Counted from the stretch's first letter, positions 1 through 15,800 are shown. The stretch is DNA of 64,000 nucleotides from Candidatus Omnitrophota bacterium (GCA_016180575.1 JACPAY010000003.1:106154-170153), one strand, 5' to 3'. Made by a program: numbers and translations. Notes: generated from the sequence alone by a model not told the origin.

Positions 1-75
1 GCCCAGCATCGCCAAGAGCCACTCCACACCTGTCCCCACCCCCACGACCGCCACCCGGTCCCCCGGATGAACCTG
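1..75 (-). other. ORF2 start of a further SAM-methyltransferase-like module (cut by the window edge)
   Basis: HPGDRVAVVGVGTGVEWLLAMLG resembles MTase motif I (xVLDxGxGxG). Confidence 0.3.
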
Positions 76-3000
76 CAGGGCGTTCAGCGCTTCGTGAGCG
101 AGCAACCGGAGCCGCTCTTCGTCTTCACGCCGCAGGAAGACGATCGGCGAGGCAAACACGCTGGCGAGCAAGACGTCCCATGTCTCATGCCGCAGCCGGT
201 CATACTCCTGGCTGGCGACGCGCACCGTGATGGCGGAATGATCGCTGAGGGGCACGCGGACCGTTTCCATCGGCCTGCCCGGAATCACCCGCGTCGCCAG
301 GTCCCCTTCCATCTCCCAGGGCCTCACGCAGATGAAGCGGGTCTTGGTCAATTGCGGATCCCCGACCGCGAGCCTTGCGCGGGGGTCATCCGCCCGGACA
401 TAGCGCGCAGGCGACTGCGGCACGTACAGCCGCTCCTCCCGGTCGACGATGCCGATGACCTCCAGCGGCTCATCGGCCGGCCCCTCCACGCCGTACAGCC
501 TGGGCTCCGCCGTCCTCAGCGCAAGGAGCAGCTTCATCGCCTGGTCTCGAACAGACTGCGAGACTTCGTGCTGCACGCCGTCTTGGGCCAATGCCCGGCG
601 GAGTTCGTCCAGCGACTGGCGCAGCCGCCTCACCTCCCCGCGGGTCAGGGCCCTCGAGGTCCAGGCCTGCCGCAGCGATAGGACGGTCTTCACGTAGCTG
701 AGATACCGCGGCTTCACATCGCGCAGCAGGCCCCAGGGCAGGTCCATGACGGTGACGTCAAACGCTTGCTCAGCCTCCCAGAACGACGCGGGGACGAAGA
801 CCGGCGTCTCCAGGAAGCGGGCAGACGCAAGCCGCGTGAGTTCCGGGGGCACGTCCTTGGCTTCGAGCCGGAATGACGGGGACGCCAGATGCCGCACCGC
901 CTCCTTGACTTCCCGGAGCAGCTCGTCCGCGGACTTGTCCCTGCCCTGCGCATCCGTGGAATCGATGGGCGGGCCAAACGCAATCGTCACGGGGCGCAGC
1001 CCCAGCCGGAGGGAGACATACGCGGGCACAATCGGCACGCCCGCCTGCCGCGCGGCGCGCACCACGCCGGTCTTCCAATGGCGCAGGTCCTCATCAAGCG
1101 ACGGGTAGGGGCGGCCCGCCGGGAAGAACCCGACCACCGCCCCCGGCTGCCGCAGGTGAGCCAACACCGTCTGCATCGCCTCGCGGGGGCTTGAGATCAC
1201 CACGGCCCCGCCCCAGTTGGTCAGCCATTGCGCCAGGCGCCCCAGCCGGTACTGGGAGGGGTTCGCCAGGAAGCGCGGGAACCGCCCATCGCGCAGGACG
1301 ACTTCCGAGGCGATGACCGCGCCCTCGAAGCCGTAGAGGAGGTGATTGCTGGCGATGAGGAAGCGTTGGGACTTCGGAAGGGGCAGATGGCCAAGGCCGC
1401 GCACCCGGACCAGCCACCATCGCACCGCGAGCTGGTAGACCCAGGTCCAGCCCCACAGCAGCCAGCCCAGCTGATCGCGCCCCACCTTGGGCGGATGCTC
1501 AACCCATGCGAGGTGGAGCGAACGGCGGGCGACCTCAAGGTCTCGTCCCCGCGTCAGCCGCGTGTAGAAGGGATATGAGAGCAGGCCCCGGCTCAGCAGG
1601 AGATCAGCGGCCTCCGCCAGCGGAAGGTAACGGTGGAGGCTCGCGGCTAATTGCTGCGCGTCATCCAGGGCGAACCGTTCTTCGACAGCCTCGCCGGAGA
1701 GCCCGGTGGCTTCATGCCGGAGTTCGTGCCGCAGGAGGACGTTGCAGAAGGCATCGCCGAGCGGGTATCGCGCGGCGTTGAGATCGCGGCGGACCTTCGG
1801 GAGCGTCTCATGGAGGACGAGGAGGCCGTTCTGAATGTGGTCGCCGGCGAGGTGGTCCGTCCCATCCTCCCCGATGAGATGGCGCGCGGGAAGGACGAGG
1901 AGCGGCTGTGCCGGGTCAAGCTGCGCCCGCTCCGCCGCCGGCACCCCGTCGAGCGCCTCCTGCAGCAGCGCCCCGAGCGCGTCATCGGACAGCCCTGCCG
2001 CGCCGCCCCAACCGGCCGGCAGCAGCGCGACCAGCTCGCGCTCGCCGGCTGAGAGCCTGCGCACGGTCAGCGAGATGGCGCGGCCACGCAGGGTAAGGCC
2101 TGTGCGTTCCCCCTGGCTCACGGCGAACGCCTGCGCGCGCAGGTCGGCGAGCTCTTCCATGCGGAGCCGGTCCGCCGGTGCCTCGCCGATGTAGAGGCCG
2201 GGTGCCGCCCCGCTCAACGACTCCGGAAGCGCCTTCGGCGCGTGCGCCCATGCCGCCGTCGCCATCGGCGGCTCCGAGGGACCCTGGCCCTCCGACCGCT
2301 TCTTGATATAGAGATGCTGGCCCTTGCCGATGGCTCCCTGGTACTCAAAACCCAGCTGCTGGGCCAGGCTGCTGGCGATGCCCAGCTCGGCATGGGTCAG
2401 CTCCAACGCGATGCGCGTCCCAGGCTCCGCCGCCTCGAAGGCGGCCTTGATTCGTTTATAGGCCCGTGCCGGTGGCGAGTCCTCTTGACGGTACCTGGCC
2501 CAACTCGTCAGCCACGCGCCCACGCCCCAGGCGGCCAGGTCCGCCGCGATGCCCCATAAGATCCACGCGGGATCATCCAGGACGGCCGGGATGAGCGCGG
2601 CGGCGGTGCCGAGCAAGGCGACCCGCTTGCCGCCGCGAGCGCCTTCTTCCACCATCAGGGTCAGCGTTTTCTTCGCGGAAACCAGGCGGTCCGGTTCTGA
2701 GGTGACGTCCATCTCCCCGAGGAAGAGATGAGGCTCTCGGAGCCTGCCTTGTCCGTCAGCCAGGTCGCGAGCTAACGCTTCCCGTTCCTTGTGCCCCGTC
2801 AGCGCTCTCCTCACATCACCCAGGATGTCCCTGACCGCCGCCTTCCCGCCCGGGTGGAGGGGGGGCCGGACGGAAATCTTGCCGCCGATCTCGTCCCGCG
2901 TCGTCCTGCTCAGCGGCCGCAGGCCTGGGAATTTGCCTTTGGGCGGCGTGAGCGACACCGTCACGGTGCCTTCGCCAGCCGGCGCGGCGGCAACCGCCGG

Positions 3001-6000
3001 CGCGGGCGCCGTCGCTCCGAGGAGCTCTCCCAGCATCTCCCGTTTGGCTTCGTCGCTCGCCAGGGAGGGGTCGGAACGAATGAGTTCCGCGTAATCCGCG
3101 ACTCCCTCTGTCTGGTCGCGCAGCCGCTCGAACAGCCCGCCATCCCCAAGGGAAAATCCGAGTTGCTCTTCAATCACCCGGCGTTCCCTCGCCTCGGGCC
3201 CCTCCATCGCCGGCTCGCCAAGCAGCCTGTCCGGCGGCACACGGGGGGGCTGGCCCGCTTCGAGCGCCTCCTGCAGCTGCTCGAGCGTCCCAGCGGTCTG
3301 AAGTTCGAGCGCCCACGCGGGCGGGGGCGGGGCCTGGCTGAGCGATTCGAGGACGGTGAGAGCGGGACGGAGCATCAGCGGCTCGGGCGGCCCTACCGAC
3401 TCAGCGAGCAGCCGCGCCGGCGGCATAGGCGCAGGCCGGATAGCCTCGAACACCTCCCGGAGCTGCTCAGGCGTCTCCTTGATGAGGCGTATCGAGTTGG
3501 GTGGGACGGAGGCTTCGCGAAGCGTCTCGAGGAGGGGGGGCGCGGGCCGGACCATCAGCGGCGCGGGCGCCGGTTCCGGGACTGGCGGTGGCTCGGCTTC
3601 TTCAGCCTGCGCCTCGCGGAGCATCGCCGACAGCCGCTCAGCCTCCGCCAGGCGATCCCGCACCACGTCCAGCAGGCGGTTGCGCTCCTCTACATGGCCG
3701 CGGCGGATGACGTCCCACTGCGCCTTCGGGATGTCGCGCCCAGGCCCTTTCGGCCGCGTCGGTTTGTTTGCGAGGAGGCCCTCGGCCGCTTCCCGGACCA
3801 TCTGGAACCGCTCTTCAGCCGCCTCATCCTCGCCGAGTGCCGCGAAGACCGAGCCCAGCCTGAGCCAGATGTTCAGCCGCGCGTTCACATCGAGAGGGAT
3901 TGCCCTCCCCTGCTGCTCGGCCCGCTTGAGCGCGTCCTTGGCGTCCTCCAACCGGTCCAATCGCATGCAGACAAGCCCGATATTGTAAAGACAGATCACT
4001 GCCGGCAGCTCGACGCGTCCGGGAGCGCCCTCAACCATCTGAAGCGCCTGTTGCGCGAGCGCAAGCGCCTGCTCCAGCTCCTCCGGAGCCGCGTCCTCGC
4101 GATTCAGCACGGCAACGGCTGCGTTCATGAGGGCCACCGGGTCGAGCGGGGCTTCCTCTTCGGTCGCGGGTGTCTCTGGAACAGGGCTTGGGAGCGGAGC
4201 TTCGTATGGCTGGCCCACGCCAGGCGGAGCCGCCTCCTCATCGACGAACACGGTGACCTCGCCCGCCGCGCGCTGGAGGAGGCCGGCGGGGATGCCAAGC
4301 GAAACGGGGCCGCGCACGGCCAGGTCCACCGCGCTGCGCTTGTGCTCACCCTTGGCGATCACGATGACCTCGCGGGCGTCCCGCAGCGTCCCCAGGCCCA
4401 GCGTGACGGCAAAGTCGTGCCGCACATGATTGGCCCGCCGCGAGGCCGGATGGAGCCGGACGATGCGGGTCGGTGAGTCAACCGGCGATCCCGTCTCATT
4501 GAATCCCAGATGAATGCTTCGGAACAGAGTCAAGAGGAACGCGTGCACCACGCGCAATCCCGGCACCGCCACCATCCACCGGCCCGAGCGATAGAGCCAC
4601 CACGCCGGCCCGCGCCCGATGCCCAGCAGGGCGATGTCGATGCCGCCCTGCTCGCGGATGAACGCCTCCATCTCCGCGGCTTCCTTGTGCAGGCCGGACC
4701 GGTCTCCCTTGAAGAGGTGCACGTGCTCCTCCTTCAGGGGGGACCGCTTCAGCCGCTTCAACGGCTCAATCAGCTCCTCCCGCAGCTGCGACGCGGCGCT
4801 GCCGGGGTCCTTCCGCGCCAGCCCCGCATATTCATCGACGTTCACGAGCCACACCTGCGACCACGGAAACTTGGCGTGGCGCTCGCTCGCCGCCGCCTCC
4901 AGCAGCGCCTTGTAGACGGGCTTCGGGGTTTCGCCAAACGGCACCGCGATGAGCACCTTGCCGCGGGCGTTGATGGCCGCCTGCATGCGGCGAAGGAGGT
5001 GCTCGGCGACCGCCGCATCGTCCCCGACGATGAAGACCGCCAGCGGCCGTCGCGGCGGCAGCCCATCCGGAAGCGGCGCCGTGAAGATGCGCACCCGCCG
5101 CCAGGCGCTCCCCAGCAGGCGCAGACCCCGTTGTCCCACCCACACCAGGCCATAGGCGGTCCCCGCATACCCCGCAGTCGCCAAGGCCGCCAACAAGGTG
5201 ACCCGCCAAGGAGGAGCAGTCCCCACCGGAATGCCGGCCCACCAGAAGGCGGCCATGTAGCCGATGTAATAGGTCGGGGAAACATCCAGCGCCATCGCGA
5301 GGAGGTCAAGCACCGGGCGTCCGACGGCATACAGCACCAGCGCGGCGGACACACCGAGCCACGCACTGCTCACGAACGTGGGGGCGGGTTGCCGGGCTCT
5401 CCGCAGCCACAATCCGAGCTTCAGCAGCGCCCACGCGGCGGTGAGCTCCAGCAGCGGCAACCCCACATGGAGCAGGCGGATGTAGGTGGCGACGCGCCAG
5501 CCGGGCCCGTAGTCGCCGAGGAGCGTGGCGAGCCAAAACTGCAGTTTCAAGCCCCCCCATCCCACCAAGAGCCCCGGCACATAGGGGCTGGGAGGCATGC
5601 CGGAAAAGTTCACGTGTTGGTACGCCAGCAGGCCGAGCGTCAGCGCGCCCGCCAGCGCCGCCGCCGGCCACCGCCGGCGCCCGCCAGGGTCCGGCGCCCA
5701 CGCCCGCCGCAGATCCGCCTCCTGGCCCACGCCGAGGGACGGCCCCAGCGGCCAGGCGAGGAGCTCCGCCGCGATGACGGCGGCGTTGAGCAGGAGGTGC
5801 GCGGCGAGCCATGAATCGGGGGCAATCTCGATGAGGCCCAGCGCCCAGAGGAGCACAAACGGCAGGCTGATGAGGAGATTGACCGCAAGGCCCGCCAGCG
5901 CCGGCGGCCCGCGGGTGGTCCACGGCATCCCGGAGAGGAAGTGGGCCCAGCGCACCGGCTCGGTTGGGACGCGGCCGCTGAGCTTCCCTTCCTTCAGCCA

Positions 6001-9000
6001 CGCCCAGCGCCCATGGAAGAGGTGGGCGAGGGCCGAGGGGGTCGTCCCGCGCTGCGGGTGGACCGATTCGGGCGGCTCATTCCACGGTCGGGGCTCCGCG
6101 AAGCCGCGCTGGGCCAGCCGGTTCAGTCTCGGGGTCAGCTCCCCTCCTCGATGCGCGCGACGCAGCTGCTTGACCCAGTCCAGGAACCGTTTGAATTCTG
6201 CCAGGTCCGCAAACCTCAGCGAGGGGTAGCGGGTGGTCATCAGCTGGAGGGACATGGCGATGCTCTCCCAATGCGCCCCCAGATGGGCCGGCGACCACAG
6301 GATGGAGAGCGCTTCCGTCAGCTTGGGGCTCGAAACCGTCGGAATGAGCCGTCCCAGCAGCCGCTTGATGATCCGGCGCATGTCCATTGGGGCCTGGCTG
6401 GATGGCGCATCGGCGCCTGAGGCAAAACGAACCATCGAGGAGCTGCGCCGTGGATTGAAGGGATGGTGCAGGACGTCGTCCGCGCCGCGATGCTCGAAGT
6501 CCCACGGATACCTGGCCGGCGCGCGCGATCTCGCCTGAGGCGGAGCGTCCGTCCCCGCCAGCGGATGGGCGCCCCCCTGCCCCTGGGGTGGAGACCGTTT
6601 CAGGAGGGCGCGGATTTCCTCAAGGCGTTCCTTCTTGAAATAGTAGTGGGTGTGCTTCCGCCGCTTCAGCTGCCGGTCAGGCTTCAGGCCGTCTTTGATG
6701 GCGCTCGACATCGTTGACGGCGATACCCCGACGAGTCGGGCCACCTCGCTCGCCAGGTACAGATCCTCGGCGTCGACGGTCAAGCGCTTGCGGATGGCGG
6801 GAAGCCGGCGACGGCTGAAGTAATAGTACGTGTGACGCCCGCGGGGAACGATACGGTCCGGCCTGAGTTCCTGATGCCTCATCGCGACAAGGATGGTCCC
6901 TTCAGACACCCCAATGGCTCCCGCCAGCTCACTCGCCAGGAAGAACCCAGGCAGACGGAATGGCTTGAGGACGGCCCGCAGCGCCCGTAATCGGCCCCGC
7001 CTGAAATATTGATAGGTGCGCTTGCCATGCGGTTGCACCAGGTCAGGGGGATCGACCTCACCGCGCTTGATGGCATCCCTGAGGACCTCGGCCGGCACCC
7101 CTAACAACTCCGCCATCTTCTCGATGGAGACAAATCCCTTTGGCGCAAGCGGCTTGAACCGCTCGCGCAGGGTCGGCACGCGAGCCGGGTCGAAGAACGA
7201 GCGGGGGTGCCGTCCCTGCGGCACCATCATGTCGGGCTGCAGACGCCCGTGGCGAATGGCGCTGTGCAGTGAGGATCTCGGAGCCGGCAACGCCTCGGCA
7301 AGCTGCCGAACGGACAAGAGGCTCGAGACAAATGCCGCGTTGATGAGGTGTGGGTGTTGCTCCACGTCCTTGAGGGGAACGGGTGAAAGCGCTGCCGAGT
7401 TGACGGTCAGCCGCTGTCGATCCTCCAGGAACTCAACCGGGAGATAGTGCTGGAGGCCGCGCGACTCCGGTGCTCCCACGACCTGCCCCATGCCCAGCGA
7501 CTCGTGCTCGACGTACCGGCCCCTCCACCAACCCGGAAGGCTCGTCAATGGCTCCTTCCCCTGGTTGCGGCGATGCGTGAAGAATCCGGTGATGACGAGC
7601 AGGGCGAGGACCGCCGCCGTCCACTCGAGGGGCAGACGCAGAACGATCGCATCGGCGAACGGGTCCTGCGGCGCCATCCCGGCGAAGCCGTAGGAGAAGA
7701 GAAGGGCCGGGATGAGCAGCAGGGAGAGCAGCCTGCGGTGCGGACCAGTCCTGTTCCCCGGCTCATCATGCGCCGCGGGCCACGCCGACTGGTCCGGCGA
7801 GGTCCCGCCCGGCCAGTCGAGCCCCAGGCTGAGGCGGAGGAGGCGCTGCTCCAAGGCGTTCAGCCGATACCACCGGGACCACTCGCCGGCTTGAAACTCG
7901 CGGTGCTGGACGCTCGCATGGGGATAGTCCATATGGAACCGGACCGCCTGCTCCGCCGCATGCCGGAACCTTCGGCCGGCCACCAGGCGGCGCGCGGCCT
8001 GCTGTGCCACATAGTTCGCGAGCATCTGACGAGCCACCAATGTCGGCTCCCGCCCCCCGCCGATGTGATGAGCCGCTTCGCGCGCCAGGCGCCTCAGGAA
8101 GGTGCGGCGAGGGAACAAGACGTCGTGAAGGTCAAGCAGGAGCAGGAGCGGTTTCAGGAGGAAGGCGGTGGGCGCGGCCAGATCAAGCAACCGATCGTGC
8201 TCCCGCGCCAGAACGAGAGGCAACAGCAGCCTTCGGACCGCCGCGAACCGGCGTGAGTGGCTCCGGGCCACGAGCCAGGGGACAAAGTGCATTTCCCCGG
8301 TCGTCGGCGCCGTCAGGGCCAACTCGCCATGCTGTCGGAGCAGCCGAATCCAGCCGGTCGCCCCCCGCGCACGCTGCCATCGCTGCACGTGCTGCCAGGC
8401 ATCCCGGTCAGCCCAGGCCGGAACCGCCCCCGCCAGCGCCATCGGGTCCTTCGGGAGATCCTGGGGCGCCCAAACGGTGCCCAGGATGCCGAGGAAGCCG
8501 GTCACGAGCGCCAGCAGGCCGGCGAACCCCGCGTAGCCTGTGAGCCAGGTGATCGGCTCCGAGGGATCGATGCCGAAGACCGCGCCGAGCCCCGCCGCCG
8601 CGCCCCCGAAGAGCACGCCCCACTCCAGGTGCTCGCGGATGCTGAAGGGTTTGCGCTCCAGTGCTGACGGCGGAAAATCGGTGTCTGACACCATGTTCTC
8701 GACGGCGGGCGGCGCGGCAGGCAACCTGTCTGACTTCGACACCGACTCTAAATTGGCGAGCTCAGGGACATCCTCCCCGGCGGCGGCTCGGTGTGCAAGC
8801 TGTTCCCATACACTGCCTTGCTCCACGACAAATGAAACGCCACGCGTCGTCCAGCGGCCATCAATGTGAGCTCTGACGCGACGCGGGGTCTCAACGACAA
8901 CGTAATGCTTGGAGCTCTGCCGCGTACCTTCCGGCGGAGTGTGACCGAAGGCCGTGACCAGCGCAGGATCGAGCAGCGGATGCGAAGAAAGATCCAGCAC

Positions 9001-12000
9001 CATGTGCGGCATGTAAAAATAATCGCCGAGCAGAATCAATATGTTCGCTGATTCCTCCGTCAGCTTTCTGGGCCCCTCCAGCAGAAGTTGATGTGGCGCG
9101 ATATGGAACACCGCCACTGTTGTCCCGTTACTGTGCTGAATCCGGCTTGCCGGCGCCCATCCCCAGCGATCGATAAAACCGGGAGCCTCGGCCTCCAGTG
9201 GTTCTTGCCGATAGAACGTTAACATCACACCGGTGGATTGCCTCTCCCCTACAGCGAGGTGCTTCCCAAGGCCATTAGGGTCCGTGATCGGTCTCGTCCT
9301 CCATTCGGCATGCCGGTTCATCACCTCAAGCAAGAACGTGTCGACATACACGTCATGCGCCACTCGAGACAGCGCTCCTACGCGGGCATATGAGGTCAAC
9401 TCGCGTTCTTGGTCGAACAGGATGACGCGGGTTGGGGTCCCAAGGAAAAAGAAATAACGTTGCGGGTCGTTCTTCTCGGCCAACGCCATAAACCGATTGC
9501 CCGTATCGCCTGACTTTTCACGTACTCGCTCAAGGACGGCCGGCAGAAAGCTCCATGTGCGTTGAAACGTTTTCGGCAAACCGAACTCGACAGGAGTGAA
9601 TCGAATCTGGCCTCCTGAAGCCGGATACGCGGTGCGGTGACGTTCGTTCGCGACGACCGCTTGACGGATCTTTGGATCGCCGAAATAGTTCAGAAGCACG
9701 CGATCGATGAACGTTTGCACCGCCGGATAACTGAGCATTCGAGACGACGGAATCACCTGACGCGGCTGATCCTCGGCCAGCTGGTCATACGACGATTGGT
9801 GACTCAACGTGTGGTAGAGAAAGAGCTCACGCCCCCGTATGGCAAGCACGAGTGCGTTCGTCGGCTGTTGTCGATCAATGAGTAATCGTATCCGGATTTG
9901 GCCATTGGCCGAGGCGATTTCCGGAATAGTGGAGACCAGGTCGCCCGCTAACCAATGGCCGAATATGACTCGCCACCCACCCAAACGGCACTCCAGTGCC
10001 CTGCGGGCCTGCAATGCGGGTAAGCTCGACGATCGAGTCGGGATCTGGTGCAGCGCGTTGGTGATGGGAGAGAGACGGGATGGAGAAAGCGTCATCGGTG
10101 GTGTGGCGGCAGCGTCAAGCGCCCCAGCGGCGTCATCGAGCGCCTGTTGCAACGTCTTTATCGCTGAAGCAACGTCACCGGTGGCGGGCGGCGCGGCAGC
10201 TGGATCTCTCCCTGAGGGAGGTAAAGGTTGTTTCCGCTGCAGCACCAGCACTGTTATCTCCCATTCCTCAGGTTGAGGATCAGCAATCGTATACGCATAC
10301 TCACTCCTCGCTGGCTCGTCATACTTGATCACCTTTTCCAACCCTAAGCGGTCGAGTGCTGCCTCAAAGGTCACATGGAGCTCGTCCTCCCATTGAGGAT
10401 GCGCAATGACCAAGAGTCCGCCTGGCTTCAAGGCCCGGACAAGCGGGCGGTATCGTCGTCGCAGTGCCGTCGTCTCATCCACCCCCATGTCATGGGCAAG
10501 ACCAGAGGGCGGGTCGAGGGCAAAGCGAGCCACGATGAAATCCAACGAGGATGCTTCGACGTGCTTCGCATAGTCGGTGTAATCGCGCACCTGGTGAAGA
10601 TACGGTCGATCCTGACTGGACGGAACCTCGTCACCCACGCCCTCAATGTCCACGCCCTGTCCTCGCAAAAATTCCAACAACGCTAACGTGTCTCCTCTTG
10701 GGCCTAGCTCGAGACCCTTCAATCCTTTCATTCGCTCAATGCTACCATAGGCTCTTAGCAGCTCTCGGATGATGGGCCGGAAGTACGCAAGGGGCTTGCG
10801 GGGTGTCCCTTGACGGTCAGCCCCCTCGTCTCTCCGCTCATCAGCCAATACGACTCGATCCACTTGTGCCTCAAGAGTCGCGTCTGCGGCGGGCGGCGCG
10901 GCGGGGCGGGCGTTCGACGCGTCAGCCGTCGGCTTGACACCGTCAGCGTCGGATGCTACAGTCGTGGCAGGAGGAGCCGATGAAGACGAAACGGAAGACG
11001 CCGATTCGCGTAACCCTCTTTCCCCAACCGCTTCAGCGGGACTATGACTGGGCATGGGCCCACTATGGCGAGTTGGGGCGACGGTATCCGAACCAATGGG
11101 TGGCGTTTGCTCACCGACGGGTCCTGGCGGCAGGCCCTCGCCTGAATCGGGTGCTGGAGAAAGCGCATCAGCAGGTGGACTGGCCGCATATCCCCCATCT
11201 GTTTGTGGAGTCAGGAATTCATATCTATTATGCGCATCACCCTTGAGGTCCACCGCACGTTGGACCTCGGGGCCAGCCGCACCCACCACCGGCTCTTCCT
11301 GTACCGCCTGCTCACGCGAGTTCGATTCCGCCAAGCCCGTGGCTGGAGCGACTACCATGTGGCGATCCTGGACACCGGCGCCCCCTATTCCCTGCTCCCC
11401 CTCTCGCTGTGGCCCGCCTTGCGTGTCGAGCGCCTCACGACGCTGCCCCTGCGCGGCATCGTCCCCGGCCACACCGCGGAGCTCCGCGCCGATCTGGCCC
11501 GTGTCTCCGGGCGCCTGCTGGATGCCCGCCGTGTCTCCCCGCGCCTGATCCTCTGGGCCATGCTGGCCAGGACCGATGAGGTCCCGCTGATCCTTGGCTG
11601 GGCCGGCTGCCTCGACCGCGCCAGGCTTGGATTGGACGGGCGACGTCGCTCCGCCTGGCTTGAGTTCTAATCCGTCCCTTCCCTCTGCAAGTCTCGCTGT
11701 GCCCCCTACTCCTGGTCCTTCACCTTTTGCTTCGTTTCCGGCGGGCGGCGCGGCAACATGGGGGGTGGACGGCTGGCCGACCGCATCGAGCAGACCGTCC
11801 AGGAACGCGAGGACCGACTCGTGAGCTCGCACATCTGCGGGAGACGCGAACCGAAGCGGCTCCGCGGCGACTGCCTGATAGTCGTCGCGGATGCGGCGGA
11901 GCGCGCCGGCCAGGGCCTCCCGCTCCGCCTGCCGCCCCGCGCCGGCGAAGTGCCGCCGGATGCGGTCGGTGAGGGGGCCCTTGGCATCCCGCCGGATGGC

Positions 12001-12762
12001 GGAGGGCAACTGCTCCACGACCGCGCGATTCGCCGCGTCAGCGGCCCGCTGGAGGGAGCGGGTGACCTCCTCGGTCATCCGCCGGATCTCCTGCATCGGC
12101 ATGCGGCGCATCGTGGCCAACGCGCCGCCCAATGACCCCATCCGCTCGTACGGATCAAACCGGAATCCCGGCTGCTCATGCCAGGCGCGCTCCACCGGAT
12201 AGCCCATCGGATCAGGCGCCGGCCCATCCGGAAGGAACGGCTCAAGGGCGTCTGGCGCGAGCTCCCAGTCCGTTTTTTGGAGGATCGTGAGGCGGGCGGC
12301 ATCGCCCGGCTTCGGCGCCACGAGGACCTGGATCCCGCCGCCGCCGAGCCCGCCGGGCACGGCCAGGCGATGCGCCTCGCGCAGCGCCGCCCGCTGCTGC
12401 TCGGGGGTCACGAAGCGGCCGGCGCCCAGCGCCGCCACCACGACGTGCTGGCTCTGCGGCGGCAGGCTGCTGGCGCCGGCCTGCCGGCTGACCTCCTCCG
12501 TCAGGCCCTGGGCATGCCGGACCGTGAGGCTGAGCTCCCGCAGGGCGGATGACGGCTCGACCTCCGTCAACCGCAGCCTCGAGCCCGCCTTCAGGACGCC
12601 AGGCTCATCGGCCAGACGGACCCATGCCGTCGCCAGCCAGGAGGGGCCGGCGGCGAGCGACGTGATCTGGAGCACGCCGTTAGACTCCAGCCATCCGCTG
12701 GCCTGGAGGGCCTCGACCAGCCTGACGACGGCCCGCTCGTAGGCATGCGCCGTCAGGCCCAT
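1..12762 (-). CDS. Second giant multidomain ORF2, partial (C-terminus beyond the left window edge; at least 4,254 codons in-window)
   Basis: Hand translation of the minus frame whose codons occupy + positions 3k+1..3k+3 found no in-phase TTA/CTA/TCA from 13272 down to 1. The last stop in this frame is the one that ends track ORF 13273..13458(-). ORF2 is absent from the track presumably because its own stop lies left of position 1. The first ATG after the ORF1 stop is 12760-12762 (MGLTAHAYERAVVRLVEALQ...). Minus-codon third positions are 20/20 G/C in sampled lines 12061-12120 and 8581-8640. Caveat: segment 10904-11739 does not look coding on this strand. Confidence 0.7.
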   Translation of the reverse strand, partial: MGLTAHAYERAVVRLVEALQASGWLESNGVLQITSLAAGPSWLATAWVRLADEPGVLKAGSRLRLTEVEPSSALRELSLTVRHAQGLTEEVSRQAGASSLPPQSQHVVVAALGAGRFVTPEQQRAALREAHRLAVPGGLGGGGIQVLVAPKPGDAARLTILQKTDWELAPDALEPFLPDGPAPDPMGYPVERAWHEQPGFRFDPYERMGSLGGALATMRRMPMQEIRRMTEEVTRSLQRAADAANRAVVEQLPSAIRRDAKGPLTDRIRRHFAGAGRQAEREALAGALRRIRDDYQAVAAEPLRFASPADVRAHESVLAFLDGLLDAVGQPSTPHVAAPPAGNEAKGEGPGVGGTARLAEGRDGLELKPGGATSPVQSKPGAVEAAGPAKDQRDLIGPGQHGPEDQARGDTAGIQQAPGDTGQIGAELRGVAGDDAAQGQRREALDTQGGPQREGEQGIGGAGVQDRHMVVAPATGLAESNSREQAVQEEPVVGAAGPEVQRAVDLKGDAHNRYEFLTPQTDGGYAASPPADALSPAPDSGEGLPPGPVGEQTPPIGSDTVAPTRHSGPMPSHSPAEAVGERGLRESASSVSSSSAPPATTVASDADGVKPTADASNARPAAPPAADATLEAQVDRVVLADERRDEGADRQGTPRKPLAYFRPIIRELLRAYGSIERMKGLKGLELGPRGDTLALLEFLRGQGVDIEGVGDEVPSSQDRPYLHQVRDYTDYAKHVEASSLDFIVARFALDPPSGLAHDMGVDETTALRRRYRPLVRALKPGGLLVIAHPQWEDELHVTFEAALDRLGLEKVIKYDEPARSEYAYTIADPQPEEWEITVLVLQRKQPLPPSGRDPAAAPPATGDVASAIKTLQQALDDAAGALDAAATPPMTLSPSRLSPITNALHQIPTRSSSLPALQARRALECRLGGWRVIFGHWLAGDLVSTIPEIASANGQIRIRLLIDRQQPTNALVLAIRGRELFLYHTLSHQSSYDQLAEDQPRQVIPSSRMLSYPAVQTFIDRVLLNYFGDPKIRQAVVANERHRTAYPASGGQIRFTPVEFGLPKTFQRTWSFLPAVLERVREKSGDTGNRFMALAEKNDPQRYFFFLGTPTRVILFDQERELTSYARVGALSRVAHDVYVDTFLLEVMNRHAEWRTRPITDPNGLGKHLAVGERQSTGVMLTFYRQEPLEAEAPGFIDRWGWAPASRIQHSNGTTVAVFHIAPHQLLLEGPRKLTEESANILILLGDYFYMPHMVLDLSSHPLLDPALVTAFGHTPPEGTRQSSKHYVVVETPRRVRAHIDGRWTTRGVSFVVEQGSVWEQLAHRAAAGEDVPELANLESVSKSDRLPAAPPAVENMVSDTDFPPSALERKPFSIREHLEWGVLFGGAAAGLGAVFGIDPSEPITWLTGYAGFAGLLALVTGFLGILGTVWAPQDLPKDPMALAGAVPAWADRDAWQHVQRWQRARGATGWIRLLRQHGELALTAPTTGEMHFVPWLVARSHSRRFAAVRRLLLPLVLAREHDRLLDLAAPTAFLLKPLLLLLDLHDVLFPRRTFLRRLAREAAHHIGGGREPTLVARQMLANYVAQQAARRLVAGRRFRHAAEQAVRFHMDYPHASVQHREFQAGEWSRWYRLNALEQRLLRLSLGLDWPGGTSPDQSAWPAAHDEPGNRTGPHRRLLSLLLIPALLFSYGFAGMAPQDPFADAIVLRLPLEWTAAVLALLVITGFFTHRRNQGKEPLTSLPGWWRGRYVEHESLGMGQVVGAPESRGLQHYLPVEFLEDRQRLTVNSAALSPVPLKDVEQHPHLINAAFVSSLLSVRQLAEALPAPRSSLHSAIRHGRLQPDMMVPQGRHPRSFFDPARVPTLRERFKPLAPKGFVSIEKMAELLGVPAEVLRDAIKRGEVDPPDLVQPHGKRTYQYFRRGRLRALRAVLKPFRLPGFFLASELAGAIGVSEGTILVAMRHQELRPDRIVPRGRHTYYYFSRRRLPAIRKRLTVDAEDLYLASEVARLVGVSPSTMSSAIKDGLKPDRQLKRRKHTHYYFKKERLEEIRALLKRSPPQGQGGAHPLAGTDAPPQARSRAPARYPWDFEHRGADDVLHHPFNPRRSSSMVRFASGADAPSSQAPMDMRRIIKRLLGRLIPTVSSPKLTEALSILWSPAHLGAHWESIAMSLQLMTTRYPSLRFADLAEFKRFLDWVKQLRRAHRGGELTPRLNRLAQRGFAEPRPWNEPPESVHPQRGTTPSALAHLFHGRWAWLKEGKLSGRVPTEPVRWAHFLSGMPWTTRGPPALAGLAVNLLISLPFVLLWALGLIEIAPDSWLAAHLLLNAAVIAAELLAWPLGPSLGVGQEADLRRAWAPDPGGRRRWPAAALAGALTLGLLAYQHVNFSGMPPSPYVPGLLVGWGGLKLQFWLATLLGDYGPGWRVATYIRLLHVGLPLLELTAAWALLKLGLWLRRARQPAPTFVSSAWLGVSAALVLYAVGRPVLDLLAMALDVSPTYYIGYMAAFWWAGIPVGTAPPWRVTLLAALATAGYAGTAYGLVWVGQRGLRLLGSAWRRVRIFTAPLPDGLPPRRPLAVFIVGDDAAVAEHLLRRMQAAINARGKVLIAVPFGETPKPVYKALLEAAASERHAKFPWSQVWLVNVDEYAGLARKDPGSAASQLREELIEPLKRLKRSPLKEEHVHLFKGDRSGLHKEAAEMEAFIREQGGIDIALLGIGRGPAWWLYRSGRWMVAVPGLRVVHAFLLTLFRSIHLGFNETGSPVDSPTRIVRLHPASRRANHVRHDFAVTLGLGTLRDAREVIVIAKGEHKRSAVDLAVRGPVSLGIPAGLLQRAAGEVTVFVDEEAAPPGVGQPYEAPLPSPVPETPATEEEAPLDPVALMNAAVAVLNREDAAPEELEQALALAQQALQMVEGAPGRVELPAVICLYNIGLVCMRLDRLEDAKDALKRAEQQGRAIPLDVNARLNIWLRLGSVFAALGEDEAAEERFQMVREAAEGLLANKPTRPKGPGRDIPKAQWDVIRRGHVEERNRLLDVVRDRLAEAERLSAMLREAQAEEAEPPPVPEPAPAPLMVRPAPPLLETLREASVPPNSIRLIKETPEQLREVFEAIRPAPMPPARLLAESVGPPEPLMLRPALTVLESLSQAPPPPAWALELQTAGTLEQLQEALEAGQPPRVPPDRLLGEPAMEGPEARERRVIEEQLGFSLGDGGLFERLRDQTEGVADYAELIRSDPSLASDEAKREMLGELLGATAPAPAVAAAPAGEGTVTVSLTPPKGKFPGLRPLSRTTRDEIGGKISVRPPLHPGGKAAVRDILGDVRRALTGHKEREALARDLADGQGRLREPHLFLGEMDVTSEPDRLVSAKKTLTLMVEEGARGGKRVALLGTAAALIPAVLDDPAWILWGIAADLAAWGVGAWLTSWARYRQEDSPPARAYKRIKAAFEAAEPGTRIALELTHAELGIASSLAQQLGFEYQGAIGKGQHLYIKKRSEGQGPSEPPMATAAWAHAPKALPESLSGAAPGLYIGEAPADRLRMEELADLRAQAFAVSQGERTGLTLRGRAISLTVRRLSAGERELVALLPAGWGGAAGLSDDALGALLQEALDGVPAAERAQLDPAQPLLVLPARHLIGEDGTDHLAGDHIQNGLLVLHETLPKVRRDLNAARYPLGDAFCNVLLRHELRHEATGLSGEAVEERFALDDAQQLAASLHRYLPLAEAADLLLSRGLLSYPFYTRLTRGRDLEVARRSLHLAWVEHPPKVGRDQLGWLLWGWTWVYQLAVRWWLVRVRGLGHLPLPKSQRFLIASNHLLYGFEGAVIASEVVLRDGRFPRFLANPSQYRLGRLAQWLTNWGGAVVISSPREAMQTVLAHLRQPGAVVGFFPAGRPYPSLDEDLRHWKTGVVRAARQAGVPIVPAYVSLRLGLRPVTIAFGPPIDSTDAQGRDKSADELLREVKEAVRHLASPSFRLEAKDVPPELTRLASARFLETPVFVPASFWEAEQAFDVTVMDLPWGLLRDVKPRYLSYVKTVLSLRQAWTSRALTRGEVRRLRQSLDELRRALAQDGVQHEVSQSVRDQAMKLLLALRTAEPRLYGVEGPADEPLEVIGIVDREERLYVPQSPARYVRADDPRARLAVGDPQLTKTRFICVRPWEMEGDLATRVIPGRPMETVRVPLSDHSAITVRVASQEYDRLRHETWDVLLASVFASPIVFLRREDEERLRLLAHEALNALQVHPGDRVAVVGVGTGVEWLLAMLG
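940..1400 (-). other. ORF2 PlsC/LPLAT-like acyltransferase module
   Basis: FLIASNHLLYGFEG is an NHxxxx block with the usual Asp not in register. VVGFFPAGRPYPS corresponds to the FPEGTR block. AARQAGVPIVPAYV corresponds to the PIVPV block. Confidence 0.45.
1590..1910 (-). other. ORF2 HExxH module (fourth copy of the ORF1 A/B/C family, shorter)
   Basis: GDHIQNGLLVLHETL...FCNVLLRHELRHEATG...EAVEERFALDDAQQLAASLHRY. The LLRHExxH core (1711-1750) and the preceding DH...LH block parallel ORF1 modules A-C. Confidence 0.45.
3790..4110 (-). other. ORF2 TPR-like repeats
   Basis: AVICLYNIGLVCMRLDRLEDAKDALKRAEQ and NARLNIWLRLGSVFAALGEDEAAEERFQMV fit the 34-aa TPR pattern. Confidence 0.5.
4225..5040 (-). 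other. ORF2 NagB / 6-phosphogluconolactonase-family (sugar-phosphate isomerase/deaminase) module with an insertion
   Basis: VLIAVPFGETPKPVYKALL; WLVNVDEYAGL; GGIDIALLGIG, then a ~33-aa insert, then IHLGFNETGSP; then AVTLGLGTLRDAREVIVIAKGEHKRSAV...GIPAGLLQ...VTVFVDEEAA. The order and spacing follow the NagB/Pgl family. Confidence 0.6.
5100..5930 (-). other. ORF2 polytopic membrane region
   Basis: Hydrophobic helices LAGLAVNLLISLPFVLLWALGLIEIA, WLAAHLLLNAAVIAAELLAW, LAGALTLGLLAY, LLELTAAWALLKLGLWL, AWLGVSAALVLYAV, YYIGYMAAFWWAGIPVG and VTLLAALATAGYAGTAYGLVWVG. Confidence 0.55.
6601..7320 (-). other. ORF2 four tandem 60-aa helix-turn-helix (excisionase/MerR HTH_17-like) repeats, period exactly 180 nt
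   Basis: R1 is LLSVRQLAEALPAPRSSLHSAIRHGRL...SFFDPARV. R2 is FVSIEKMAELLGVPAEVLRDAIKRGEV...TYQYFRRGRL. R3 is FFLASELAGAIGVSEGTILVAMRHQEL...HTYYYFSRRRL. R4 is LYLASEVARLVGVSPSTMSSAIKDGLK...HTHYYFKKERL. Confidence 0.6.
8704..8719. repeat. 16-nt direct repeat, copy A (GGCGGGCGGCGCGGCA)
   Basis: Exact 16-mer, read in the ORF2 frame as A-A-P-P-A (context SDRLPAAPPAVENM). Confidence 0.85.
8720..10182 (-). other. ORF2 cassette 1: ~490-aa module of unknown function, lower GC
   Basis: Protein-like translation (…RYFFFLGTPTRVILFDQERELTSYARVG…ANILILLGDYFYMPHMVLDL…) with no family recognised. It is bounded exactly by repeat copies B and A. Confidence 0.4.
10183..10198. repeat. 16-nt direct repeat, copy B (GGCGGGCGGCGCGGCA)
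   Basis: Exact 16-mer, 1479 nt (493 codons) from copy A. Context in ORF2 is RDPAAAPPATGD. Confidence 0.85.
10199..10887 (-). other. ORF2 cassette 2: class I SAM-methyltransferase-like module, lower GC
   Basis: LKGLELGPRGDTLALLEF is motif-I-like. SSLDFIVARFAL and RALKPGGLLVIAHP follow. The module is bounded exactly by repeat copies C and B. Confidence 0.5.
10888..10903. repeat. 16-nt direct repeat, copy C (GGCGGGCGGCGCGGCG, 15/16)
   Basis: 15/16 identity, with G instead of A at the last base. It lies 705 nt (235 codons) from copy B. Context in ORF2 is ARPAAPPAADA. Confidence 0.8.
10934..10962 (+). promoter_or_regulatory. Sigma70-like promoter for the + strand two-gene cassette
   Basis: TTGACA (10934-10939), a 17-nt spacer, then TACAGT (10957-10962), immediately upstream of the AGGAGG/ATG of the DUF5678-like gene. 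Confidence 0.4.
10969..10974 (+). promoter_or_regulatory. Shine-Dalgarno site (AGGAGG)
   Basis: Perfect AGGAGG located 5 nt upstream of ATG 10980. Confidence 0.5.
10980..11246 (+). CDS. Small DUF5678-like protein (88 aa from the preferred start)
   Basis: Track ORF 10953..11246. The in-frame ATG at 10980 is preceded by AGGAGG (10969-10974) with a 5-nt spacer. The sequence MKTKRKTPIRVTLFPQPLQRDYDWAWAHYGELGRRYPNQWVAFAHRRVLAAGPRLNRVLEKAHQQ... fits the small DUF5678-type pattern. Stop TGA is at 11244-11246. Third-position G/C is clearly higher on this strand than on the antisense ORF2 frame. Confidence 0.55.
   Translation: MKTKRKTPIRVTLFPQPLQRDYDWAWAHYGELGRRYPNQWVAFAHRRVLAAGPRLNRVLEKAHQQVDWPHIPHLFVESGIHIYYAHHP
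11230..11670 (+). CDS. Retropepsin-like (clan AA) aspartic peptidase
   Basis: Track ORF 11203..11670 starts at TTG; the internal ATG at 11230 (MRITLEVHR...) is preferred and overlaps the upstream gene by 17 nt. It carries the D-T-G-A active-site motif in hydrophobic context (HVAILDTGAPYSLLP) and a C-terminal LILGWAGCLDRARL pattern typical of single-domain retropepsins. In lines 11341-11460 the + third positions are 18/20 and 19/20 G/C, against 12/20 and 14/20 for the antisense frame. Stop TAA is at 11668-11670. Confidence 0.55.
   Translation: MRITLEVHRTLDLGASRTHHRLFLYRLLTRVRFRQARGWSDYHVAILDTGAPYSLLPLSLWPALRVERLTTLPLRGIVPGHTAELRADLARVSGRLLDARRVSPRLILWAMLARTDEVPLILGWAGCLDRARLGLDGRRRSAWLEF
11740..11755. 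repeat. 16-nt direct repeat, copy D (GGCGGGCGGCGCGGCA)
   Basis: Exact 16-mer, 852 nt (284 codons) from copy C. Context in ORF2 is TPHVAAPPAGNE. Confidence 0.85.
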
Positions 12763-12805
12763 CCCGAGCCGGACCTGCGCCTCAGTGCGTTCGACGAGCC
12801 CGCTG

Positions 12806-15800
12806 TCAACGCACCTCCTCGTCGTAGAGGGCATGCCGGACGATCGAATCTCGGAAGACGTCAAGCGGCTCTCCCAGCCGCTCCGCCGACGCCCGGACAT
12901 CGCCCTCGGCGGCCCGCAGCGCCTCCACTCGCGCAGCGACCGCCCGCTGAACCTCCGCAAGTTCGGTGGCATAGTCGCGCACCTGCTGGAACCGCCACAG
13001 GCCGGGATGATCCGGATAGGGGGCAAACCGATAGACCCGCTTGACGCTGTCCGGCCGCCACTCGCTTGCCTGGGTCGTCCACACCACGTCTTCCCCAAGC
13101 CCAGGATCGAACCGCTTCACAACCCTCGCGACCCCTGGCTGGAACGCGCCAGTATGCAGCGAGGTTCTGAGGTCGCTCCTGCCGAGATGGAACCACAGCC
13201 TCCCATGACCTGTGGTGGGCACCTGGAAGTCGAGGTCGGGAAACAGCCCCGGCCGCCTGGCATCCGGGCTGGTCAGCTGGGCGCGCAGGGCGCGCATCCC
13301 CAATTCGCTCTCGGTCGGCTGGGGGGCCGCGGGCTCCTCGGCGGCCGGCGGCTCCTCTGCTGCCAACGCAAGAGGTTCGGGCGCGGCGGCGGGTTCCGGC
13401 GCCGCGGGCTCAGGCGCGCGGGCATCCGCCGGCGCGGGCGCCGTCGGGCCTGCCTCATTGAGCAGCTGCCGCAAATACGGTTCCCGCTGGATCGCTTCCT
13501 GCATCAGCCGATCGAACCAGAGGCTCTTCGCGGACCGCCCGTCTTCCTCCGTCATCAACAGCGCCAGGCCCTTGGCCAGCGCGACGCTGTTATAGAGCCC
13601 ATGGACGAAGACGTTGGCGGCCACGGCTCCCAACAGCCGGATGAGACCAGGCGGGAGGCTCGGGAGCTCGATGACATTTGCCAGCGCCTCATAGCCCGCC
13701 ACGCCGAACAACGCGCCCGCAACCGTGGCCGCGGCGATGAGGCCGAACCCGATCCAGCGCTGGCGTCGGGCCATTGCGACGCGCTCTCTGGCCTCCCGCG
13801 CGGCGTCCCAGAGCCGATCGACCGCCGCGTCCCGCAACGATCGGGGGGCGCCGGCCAGGTAGAGGGCGACGTGAAGCTGGACATCCCAGAGATCCAGTCG
13901 AGGATGCAGCAACAGGAAGACTTGCGCGAGCTTCTCCGCCTCCTCGACGCTGAGCCCCGGCAGGGTTTCCTGCAGGGTTCGAGCTAGATCGGTGAGAGGC
14001 TTCCCCAATGGATGCGCATTGAGGTAGCGCCCGCCGGTGAAGGTGGCCATGTGCCAGATGGTCCGCGGGAACTCGATGAGCGCCGCGAACCACACGGCGA
14101 TCAACTGGACCCAGGCAGACCACGCCGCCACCTCCGCCGGCAGCGGCCGGCCGGCCCGCGCGAAGAGCCAGCCTGCCAGGAGCCGGAATGCGGTCACGCT
14201 CCCCGGAAGCATGAGGATCGGTGGAGCGGATTCTGCGGCAGATGGACGGACGTCGATGCGCACGCGGGCGCTGACCCGCTCACCGGGAGCCAGGATGACC
14301 GGCGTGGACTCGCCGAGGCCGGCTGCATGGAGGTTCATCGCATCGGTCGCGGACGTCTGGGGCTCGACCGAAACAAACTCCTCGCCCTCCGGCACCCACA
14401 CGACCGTATGGGTGAAGAGCGGATCCTGCCGGATCTCGACGCGGCGCCCTTGCGGGTCCTCCAGCACCGAGACGATCTCCCCCTGTTCATCCGGCTGCAA
14501 CCGGGTGAAAACATGGTCTAGGCTGCGGCCCTCCAGGAGGGTTAGGGCGCGCAGGTCCCACGACGTGCCTTCGACCGGTACAGGCGCCTGCGGCAGCGGC
14601 ATCCGCTCGGCGTCCGCCTGCCAGACCGAGGCGCCGGGCACCGCGAGCCGCCAGCGTCCCCGGTCGGGCGTCCGAAACCAGGGATGGAACCCGAAGCTCG
14701 CGACGCGCCGCCGCCGCACATCGTCATTGACCACCTCCACCTCGATCGCGAGCCCGCTGCTCGTGACGCGATACGTGAGCGTCGGATGCAGCGGGCCGAA
14801 GAACCGCGCCATCTCCTGGGCGCTCTCCGGCGTCAGGGCCAGGCGAATGAAGCTCCCCTGCGCATCCTGTCCGGATTCGAGCACGGTCCAGCGGGCGCGC
14901 ATGGCCATCCCGTGCAGCGCATGCGGACCCAGCATCCGCACCAGCGGAGAACCCCTGACGTCCACATGCTCGCCGTCGAAGGTGAACTGCCCATTGCCGA
15001 GCCGGTTCGCCCAGGGCCCCAGGAACGGCAGGCCGCCGTCCTCGGCGAGGTCATCAGGCTGATGCAGCAGCTCCACCCCATCGACCACGAAGGAGGTCAC
15101 CTTCCCGCCGAGCTCCGGCGCCACTTCGATAAACGTCCGGCCGGTCGGATCGGCCGCGCGGATGACCGCGCGTCCCCCCAGCCACTGGCGCCAGGCGGCA
15201 CGGTCTTCAGCCGGCACGCCGAGGCTGTCCAACAGCTGCCCGCGCGCCGCCTCGGTCGGCAGCCGGAAGCTCACCGGAATGGGAACGCGCGGCTCTGCCA
15301 CCTCCAGCAGCCAGCCGAGATAGCTGCGCATCGACTCCAGCGCATTCTGGCGAGCCGCGTCCTCCAATGCGGAGAACTTGCGGAGACCCTTGAAGGTCTC
15401 GCTGTAGCCCTCCAGAGGCTGAAGGAGCCTGATGCGGACCTCCTCGATCGGTTGTCCGCGGAACTCCAGCGGCGTCTTCAGCGCAAGCTGGAGGAGCCGG
15501 TCCTCCGGGAATGCCACCTGGCGCACCTCGCTGGACCGCAGCGCCCGCACGTGAGCGGTCAAGAAGTCGCGCAGCGATGCCACCGCCGCCTCCCTGGTCT
15601 CATCCGGCACAAGGCCCCAGGCGCCAAGGCGCTCATCCTGTTCCGCGCTCTCCGAGGTCACGCTCAAGATGATCCGCTCTTCCGGCTGCCGCCGGCTGAA
15701 CGACTCACGCAGGGCGGACGGCAGGTCGTCCCCCGCCGCAATGACGAAGGCCTGAGGTTGGGGTGCGGCGGGCGGAGGCTGAGGCGCCGCGACCGGCTCA

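Follow-up and report, generated by a model that had tools for sequence, protein, structure and literature searches.

Candidatus Omnitrophota encode multi-enzyme giant proteins (West-Roberts et al. 2023, 10.1101/2023.11.21.568195), and "class 1 multi-enzyme metabolic clusters" have been described from the same group (10.64898/2026.06.07.730766). Only recently have bacterial genes with 10,000 to more than 100,000 codons been catalogued. Neither paper proposes how giant genes grow, and in a term search of both, linkers, polyproteins, fusion, horizontal or lateral transfer, shuffling and mosaic genes were not mentioned. The present analysis concerns a stretch of 64,000 nucleotides from a Candidatus Omnitrophota bacterium (GCA_016180575.1 JACPAY010000003.1:106154-170153), the whole of which is called the window. 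The window has a G+C (GC) content of about 69% and is filled by two giant genes on the minus strand, open reading frames (ORFs) 1 and 2. Inside ORF2, at 8704-11755, an island of foreign composition is divided into three cassettes by four copies of a short repeat encoding Ala-Ala-Pro-Pro-Ala (AAPPA). The best explanation of this island is a recently acquired, in-frame array of three modules at one linker position of a giant multi-enzyme gene.

The linker repeat

The 16-mer TGCCGCGCCGCCCGCC occurs exactly at 8704, 10183 and 11740, and as a 15/16 copy at 10888. The 15-mer core GGCGGGCGGCGCGGC is exact in all four copies (8704, 10183, 10888 and 11740). All four lie in one open frame of the minus strand and read A-A-P-P-A in ORF2, with identical codons on the coding strand (GCC GCG CCG CCC GCC). 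A first-pass annotation of this DNA had reported these positions and this reading, and both are confirmed. It had also pointed out that the spacings of 1479, 705 and 852 nt are multiples of 3. This is true, but it follows from the frame shared by the copies and is no independent evidence. The elements of the island are as follows, in the direction of translation; GC3 denotes the GC content of third codon positions.

Linker copy 1, 11740..11755, minus strand: exact 16-mer, with the AAPPA codons at 11740-11754; the upstream edge of the island; reads ..HV-AAPPA-GNEAK..
Cassette A, 10903..11739, minus strand: 279 codons; conserved module rich in G, P, Q, E and R; GC3 0.59
Linker copy 2, 10888..10903, minus strand: 15/16 copy, of which the 15 nt coding for AAPPA (10888-10902) are exact
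Cassette B, 10198..10887, minus strand: 230 codons; divergent, with a predicted class I methyltransferase-like fold; GC3 0.58
Linker copy 3, 10183..10198, minus strand: exact 16-mer; reads ..DPA-AAPPA-TGDVA..
Cassette C, 8719..10182, minus strand: 488 codons; GC3 0.64; no annotation
Linker copy 4, 8704..8719, minus strand: exact 16-mer; the downstream edge of the island; reads ..RLP-AAPPA-VENMV..

Apart from the 15-mer core, no word of 15 or more nucleotides is found three or more times in the 64 kb. When the codons of both ORFs were shuffled, a 15-mer with four copies appeared in 0 of 300 shuffles and a 16-mer with three copies in 1 of 300. In the 21,325 residues of both ORFs, AAPPA is found at one other site, in ORF1, where it is encoded by other codons. 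Two further near-matches of the repeat in the window (45384 and 61653) do not read AAPPA.

These numbers bear on the idea that a GC-rich word encoding Ala and Pro simply recurs by chance in DNA of 69% GC, the dip in GC3 then being due to local constraints. Stretches rich in Ala and Pro are indeed scattered through both ORFs; with up to two mismatches, the mean over dinucleotide shuffles is 1.5 matches, and one of 100 shuffles reaches six. However, all the other stretches are coded differently, and none of the 300 codon shuffles gave a 15-mer four times. The copies also coincide with the change points of GC3 and with the homology boundaries described below. Furthermore, GC3 is independent of amino-acid content, and codons rare in the host are raised more than tenfold in the island. 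Chance is thus effectively refuted.

Composition of the island

GC3 is 0.88 over the 361 codons upstream of the island, 0.59, 0.58 and 0.64 in cassettes A, B and C, and 0.83 downstream; in other words, it falls from about 0.84 outside to about 0.61 between the outer repeats. A maximum-likelihood fit with two change points placed the borders at 11760 and 8749 with a log-likelihood gain (delta lnL) of 106, and the support intervals, 11892-11730 and 8794-8638, both include the outer repeats. This is the single dip of its kind in about 21,300 codons: no other 100-codon window of ORF1 or ORF2 has a GC3 below 0.72. The codons TTA, AGA, ATA and GTA, which are rare in the host, reach fractions of 0.11-0.19 within their codon families in the island, against 0.01 in the host. 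The step at the outer copies and the foreign composition of the cassettes, both noted in the first-pass annotation from sampled lines, are therefore borne out by sliding-window GC3, by the change-point fit and by codon usage. The island is coding in the ORF2 frame, with 1,017 open codons at 57-60% GC, a GC content higher at first than at second codon positions, and protein homologues.

A sharp compositional step at a repeated word, in DNA whose source is probably a metagenome assembly, might also be produced if DNA of a lower-GC organism had been spliced into the contig at some short word present in both. Such an assembly chimera is very unlikely. Assemblers use k-mers longer than 15-17 nt. 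Both junctions are in frame, and the 1,017 codons stay open at this GC content. In addition, the repeat occurs twice more within the insert, at module boundaries defined by homology, and the same kind of anatomy is found in an independent assembly, as described below.

Homologues of the cassettes

A full phmmer scan of 1.84 billion representative proteins gave 28 matches. Each of them covers exactly one cassette, and the flanks were matched by none. The linkers are at residues 91-95, 375-379, 610-614 and 1103-1107 of the query, and most matches stop within a few residues of them; several BLAST matches of cassette B run 15-20 aa beyond linker 3. The three segments, first proposed from the repeats, are genuine separable modules: they are discrete, they assort independently among the relatives, and all three are compositionally foreign.

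Cassette A has homologues in P0002, P0003, P0004, P0005, P0022 and P0026, with 30-45% identity and alignments that run from query residue 91/107 to 354/374. Cassette B has homologues in about 20 proteins (query about 365-612), and is found inside proteins of up to 5,831 aa as well as in stand-alone proteins of about 250 aa. Cassette C has a single homologue, P0001, which is aligned end to end (query 624-1104; 30% identity; E 3e-47). Most of the matches are large multi-module proteins of 1,000-6,000 aa, and those whose source is named (P0002, P0011 and P0012) are from metagenome-assembled genomes (MAGs) of Candidatus Omnitrophota. No other segment is common to the whole of ORF1 and ORF2 and the homologous proteins or their loci. 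Paralogues of cassettes A, B and C were not found in the host genes at E<=1; paralogous duplication within the window is therefore rejected.

The island gave no Pfam match and no NCBIfam match of note, and P0001 and P0002 likewise have no Pfam match. A single-sequence AlphaFold2 (AF2) model of cassette B is of moderate confidence, with a predicted local distance difference test (pLDDT) score of 64.8 and a predicted template modelling (pTM) score of 0.65. When it was compared with the PDB by Foldseek, all 50 of the matches listed had a methyltransferase fold, and almost all of them were S-adenosylmethionine-dependent methyltransferases; among these listed matches the best E value was about 1e-7, the probability 1.0 and the TM score 0.3-0.5. 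Motif I is degenerate in cassette B, a conserved G-[LI]-E-L-G-P taking the place of GxGxG. With moderate confidence, cassette B is thus predicted to fold like a class I methyltransferase that has neither the GxGxG motif nor a Pfam or NCBIfam family. The corresponding model of cassette C was unusable (pLDDT 33). Rfam gave nothing over 8000-12500 on both strands, which means that cassette A is not a translated known RNA.

A second array in another giant gene

The gene encoding P0002, in the Omnitrophota MAG GCA_030695655.1 (locus L003), shares no other segment with ORF1 or ORF2. Its GC3 is 0.81 over codons 1-1176 and 0.60-0.68 thereafter. In the low-GC3 part a near-identical repeat of 14-17 nt, cgGCCGCGGCGGGG(G/A)A(G/T), is found at nt 5404, 6565, 7459 and 8353, with in-frame spacings of 1161, 894 and 894; the copies read AAAGN, AAAGE, AAAGE and AAAEE. 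The homologue of cassette A lies exactly between the third and fourth copies. Among 1,000 codon shuffles of this gene, none reached three copies of a 14-mer. L003 is a second, independent instance of the anatomy of the window. The exact 16-mer of the window is not present in eight loci of relatives, L001-L008.

The composition of each module was compared with that of the gene carrying it. In four high-GC hosts (the window, L003, L006 and L007) module A has a GC3 of 0.58-0.61, and the remainder of the gene 0.73-0.84 (z of -4 to -11). In the mid-GC genes L009 (0.53/0.53) and L010 (0.51/0.51), module A has the GC3 of its host. The same is the case for module B in L001, L004, L005 and L008, and for module C in L002. 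On this pattern, lower-GC lineages are the home of the modules, which look imported in the high-GC ones. It should be mentioned that the giant genes of L006 (encoding P0005) and L007 (encoding P0003) are also compositionally mosaic, with module A as the low-GC3 part in both; in L006, GC3 per 100 codons spans 0.44-0.89.

Linkers of the related proteins

Recurrent boundary motifs are present in the island and in P0004, P0006, P0011, P0015 and P0022, and are not present in the host parts of ORF1 and ORF2. The motif is ETTEPSSIG, nine times, in P0006 (L001); SSSP[ILMV], at least ten times, in P0011 (L005); R[SA]E[VAM]R, about 20 times each, in P0015 (L004) and P0022 (L010); and GAR[ML]A, 19 times, in P0004 (L009). 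All five proteins have far more copies than expected. The same cassette A unit, about 280-300 aa long, lies between copies of AAPPA in the window, of AAAGE in P0002, of GARLA in P0004 and of RSEAR/RSEVR in P0022. Similarly, cassette B is enclosed by the respective local linkers of P0006, P0011 and P0015. The gene-specific linker peptides are candidate processing or junction sites.

Codon identity among the linker copies was compared with the expectation from the codon usage of each gene:

Window: observed 1.0, expected 0.36
L003: observed 1.0, expected 0.35
L001: observed 0.79, expected 0.33
L010: observed 0.52, expected 0.27
L009: observed 0.40, expected 0.23
L004: observed 0.385, expected 0.277
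L005: observed 0.27, expected 0.24

The two arrays with fully identical linkers, the window and L003, are also the two in which the cassettes still deviate from the host composition. These values may be read as an age series, in which linkers would begin as DNA copies and would later be held as peptides while their synonymous sites drift. In L004, L005, L009 and L010 a linker peptide is repeated 10-22 times with free synonymous variation, which indicates selection on the peptide. To judge from these sequences, the linker thus probably has a role at the protein level as well, which did not figure in the first-pass annotation.

This peptide-level selection, with counts far above expectation, would fit a functional site: AAPPA and its counterparts might be processing or recognition sites, such as points at which a protease cuts a bacterial polyprotein, or an RNA or DNA signal. 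Their repeated occurrence would then be due to selection for this function and not to how modules were inserted. The stand-alone module B proteins of about 250 aa, which make the modules look like autonomous proteins, point in the same direction. So does the proposal that Omnitrophota giant proteins are cleaved, at points that are unknown (10.1101/2023.11.21.568195). On the other hand, no protease domain was found by Pfam in ORF1 or ORF2, and the linker sites have neither an Rfam family nor a consistent local structure. Ala/Pro-rich pentapeptides are ordinary extended interdomain linkers. Selection on a peptide cannot explain identity at all synonymous sites, as in the window and L003, or the foreign composition. 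A functional site would be compatible with either of the two histories of the array weighed in the next section, and it seems unlikely.

Another candidate role, that of hidden internal starts, was ruled out: the hydrophobic position of RSEVR, SSSPI and GARMA is also encoded by GTA, GTC, GTT and GCG.

About 20 aa past AAPPA, cassette A carries "GTARLAE", just before a conserved "LELKPGG" (about 11640-11670; ORF2 aa about 385-391). At the equivalent place P0004 has its local linker, "GARLAE", directly before "LEFQPG". "GTARLAE" may be what is left of an older type of linker that moved with module A; this likeness of short sequences could also be due to chance.

Origin of the array

Considerations on mechanism are based on the anatomy of the island and on seven linker arrays, that of the window and six in relatives. 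Modules would be drawn from a pool common to giant multi-module proteins, each gene using its own short linker, in this case AAPPA. In the best-fitting mechanism, to which a probability of about 0.5 is given, the array would have been built by recombination within the linker-coding sequence of 15-16 nt, whether at once or stepwise. One route would be integration of DNA with a single copy of the linker site, another the insertion of a segment with duplication of the target. Both routes would lead to n+1 identical in-frame copies around n cassettes, and the same repeats would permit seamless in-frame loss of a cassette. Later, as the relatives suggest, selection on the peptide would keep the linker while the nucleotides drift. 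In the protein the linker might serve as a spacer or, more speculatively, as a processing site of a polyprotein.

A serious rival, although a rather doubtful one, is import of the island as one block: a donor giant gene already equipped with AAPPA linkers would have supplied a single segment of about 3 kb, which entered by in-frame illegitimate recombination, the repeats being passengers without a part in the insertion. The locus of P0001 is relevant here. In P0001, AAPPA is aligned to linker copy 4, at the C-terminal end of the cassette C homologue, and the neighbouring gene has a second AAPPA; both are coded unlike the copies of the window. The contig (L002; ENA ERZ26871208 contig_123339) has a GC content of 0.57 and a GC3 of 0.63-0.66, which is the composition of the island. 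In addition, the linker before cassette A is alike in three genomes (AAPPAG, AAAPAG and AAAGE) and looks homologous, the host has no other linker of the AAPPA type, and the three cassettes are similar in GC3. The AAPPA sites and the composition of L002, the linkers before cassette A, the lack of other such linkers in the host and the similar GC3 are all in accord with one-block import. However, none of the 28 relatives holds two cassettes, which means that no donor with the arrangement A-B-C is known. Both ends of the island fall on linker copies, which random in-frame insertion does not predict. The third positions of the AAPPA codons are all G or C (5/5), for which the chance is about 0.08 under the GC3 of the island and about 0.5 under that of the host; the linker is host-like in this respect, which is weak evidence against import. 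Finally, one-block import does not account for the nucleotide identity of the four copies; it only shifts this question to the donor.

As to the further arrangement of L002, it has large genes at 7365-9875, 10001-14170 and 14170-18336, two of which contain AAPPA; P0001 (1,389 aa) is followed by an abutting gene of 1,388 aa and then by a small HTH_17 gene.

Several points weigh against recombination at the linker. Pfam gave no recombinase in ORF1 and ORF2, and no tRNA or att-like structure was found in the window. Identity over 15-17 nt is below what RecA-type homologous recombination normally uses. The GC3 values of the cassettes are statistically similar (0.58-0.64), which fits a single donor or event. 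Beyond the island, ORF1 and ORF2 show no further linker of the AAPPA type and no enriched linker motif, so that the array could have come complete with its linkers. The alike linkers before cassette A suggest a linker that moves together with its module and not a host target that was duplicated. In L001 the linkers are near-identical and the composition is homogeneous; identical nucleotides are therefore no sure sign of a recent foreign insertion.

Moreover, there was no orthologous or allelic locus in the collections searched, and gain, loss or reordering of cassettes was accordingly not observed. When the 1,779-aa region was used in a word-indexed protein search, no relative was retrieved; an alignment of cassette B retrieved two short proteins only, and one of cassette C none. 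Collections of genome contigs and metagenome contigs gave no relative of the locus, and viral contigs scanned with cassette B gave none. Cassettes B and C had no tblastn match among plasmids and phages.

A wider form of the proposal is that Omnitrophota-type giant genes grow and diversify via a dedicated in-frame cassette system, in which the linker-coding sequence would be the recombination site, the modules a mobile pool moving among genes and genomes, with frame-preserving insertion and excision at the linkers, and the linkers later the processing sites of a polyprotein. This coding-sequence counterpart of the integron is considered improbable.

Host genes

The two giant genes are:

ORF1, 12806..63946, minus strand: 17,046 aa; the upstream giant gene, context for ORF2
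ORF2, the host gene, 1..12834, minus strand: at least 4,278 aa; continues beyond the left end of the window; start tentatively assigned to the ATG at 12834

ORF1 is a multi-enzyme giant protein of the Omnitrophota type, with more than 10,000 aa, many distinct enzyme families of Pfam and no dominating repeat. Its Pfam matches are OEP, Fucose_pyrophosphorylase (fucose pyrophosphorylase/NTP-transferase), Glyco_transf_5 (starch synthase) with Glycos_transf_1 (GT1), DUF4922, HEAT and Aldose_epim. ORF2 matches Glucosamine_iso (glucosamine-6-phosphate isomerase-like), Acyltransferase (PlsC-type), HTH_17/MerR and TPR. Methyltransferase-like and transmembrane segments are also among the elements tiled along ORF1 and ORF2. 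Over the roughly 21,000 aa of ORF1 and ORF2, no internal paralogy was found by blastp (E<=1e-5).

The frame of ORF2 is free of stops over 1..13116 on the minus strand, and this open frame shares about 310 nt with the end of ORF1 (12806-13116). The codon-position GC pattern of this frame becomes coding-like near 12850-12750. The start of ORF2 is tentatively placed at the ATG at 12834, and this candidate sits 26 nt upstream of the TGA of ORF1 (12806-12808), which suggests translational coupling.

ORF2 has about four tandem MerR/HTH_17-like DNA-binding repeats at about 6500-7200 (aa about 1880-2110), of the form ..GVS..PDR..GRHTYYYF..RL..IR..; a comparable run of helix-turn-helix repeats is found in P0006. 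Cysteine is extremely depleted, with nine residues in ORF1 and six in ORF2 (about 0.07% of about 21,300 residues). ORFs of up to 1,592 aa are present on the plus strand antisense to ORF1 (e.g. 51587-56365, 44057-48262 and 37193-40834), and are most likely artefacts of the high GC content and not genes.

Comparison with known systems

Among the closest described systems are the giant proteins of Omnitrophota themselves. As in these, unrelated enzyme and regulatory domains are tiled along ORF1 and ORF2, and the cassette homologues with named sources are from Omnitrophota. The window and L003 add a concrete footprint of module gain, i.e. undrifted foreign modules joined in frame at identical linkers. 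The relatives supply candidate boundary motifs for each gene, which can be tested as recombination junctions or as cleavage sites. The linker footprint also offers a way, from sequence only, to cut giant proteins into modules for structure prediction.

With integron arrays the island has in common n units of independent origin, n+1 repeated sites, and other combinations elsewhere. Integron cassettes are, however, whole genes with attC hairpins of 57-141 bp, and intI and attI are adjacent to them, whereas the site in the window is 15-16 nt long, has no dyad symmetry and separates units encoded in frame within a single ORF. Pfam gave no integrase or recombinase domain for ORF2 or for the whole of ORF1, and the window contains only these two giant genes. 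No attC-like or consistent inverted repeat was found at the four boundaries, and the sequence they share is only 15-17 nt. The likeness to a cassette array, which the first-pass annotation had drawn, therefore holds for the layout but not for attC-like structure or an integrase, neither of which was found in the window.

Like integrative genomic islands, the island shows foreign composition and flanking direct repeats. Tandem att-flanked islands, too, consist of foreign DNA between direct repeats of about 16 bp, further copies of which separate the inserts. The inserts in the window differ from these in being translated within the host ORF and in having no mobility functions, no integrase and no tRNA target; no tRNA was found in the window.

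Recombinational exchange of modules is well documented for polymorphic toxins of the Rhs/CdiA type. In these, lower-GC in-frame modules join a GC-rich core at a short conserved coding motif (PxxxxDPxGL or VENN), which resembles the present arrangement. Their module is, however, a single C-terminal tip followed by immunity genes, whereas here three tandem modules are internal and flanked by repeats, more than 2,900 codons from the end of ORF2 at the window edge. Pfam gave no match to the RHS, YD or haemagglutinin repeat families in ORF2 or the island. The "VENM" after linker copy 4 recalls the VENN motif, most likely by coincidence.

An intein was considered and rejected. No Hint-type Pfam match was obtained even at E<=1, the cassettes start with G, A and T and are each followed by AAPPA, and the island has one Cys codon.

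As in viral polyproteins with a recurrent cleavage-site motif, a short lineage-specific peptide marks each module boundary in the island and its relatives, and the modules correspond to proteins that are also found by themselves. The motif of the window differs in being confined to the island, and Pfam gave no protease domain for ORF1 or ORF2.

In composition, AAPPA is a classical extended interdomain spacer, as in the E2 chains of 2-oxo-acid dehydrogenases. Ala/Pro linkers of this kind vary in length and in coding, whereas the four of the window are nucleotide-identical and lie at compositional boundaries. Overall, the locus is rated as a case in which domains are shuffled at a conserved linker and the nucleotide footprint is unusually explicit.

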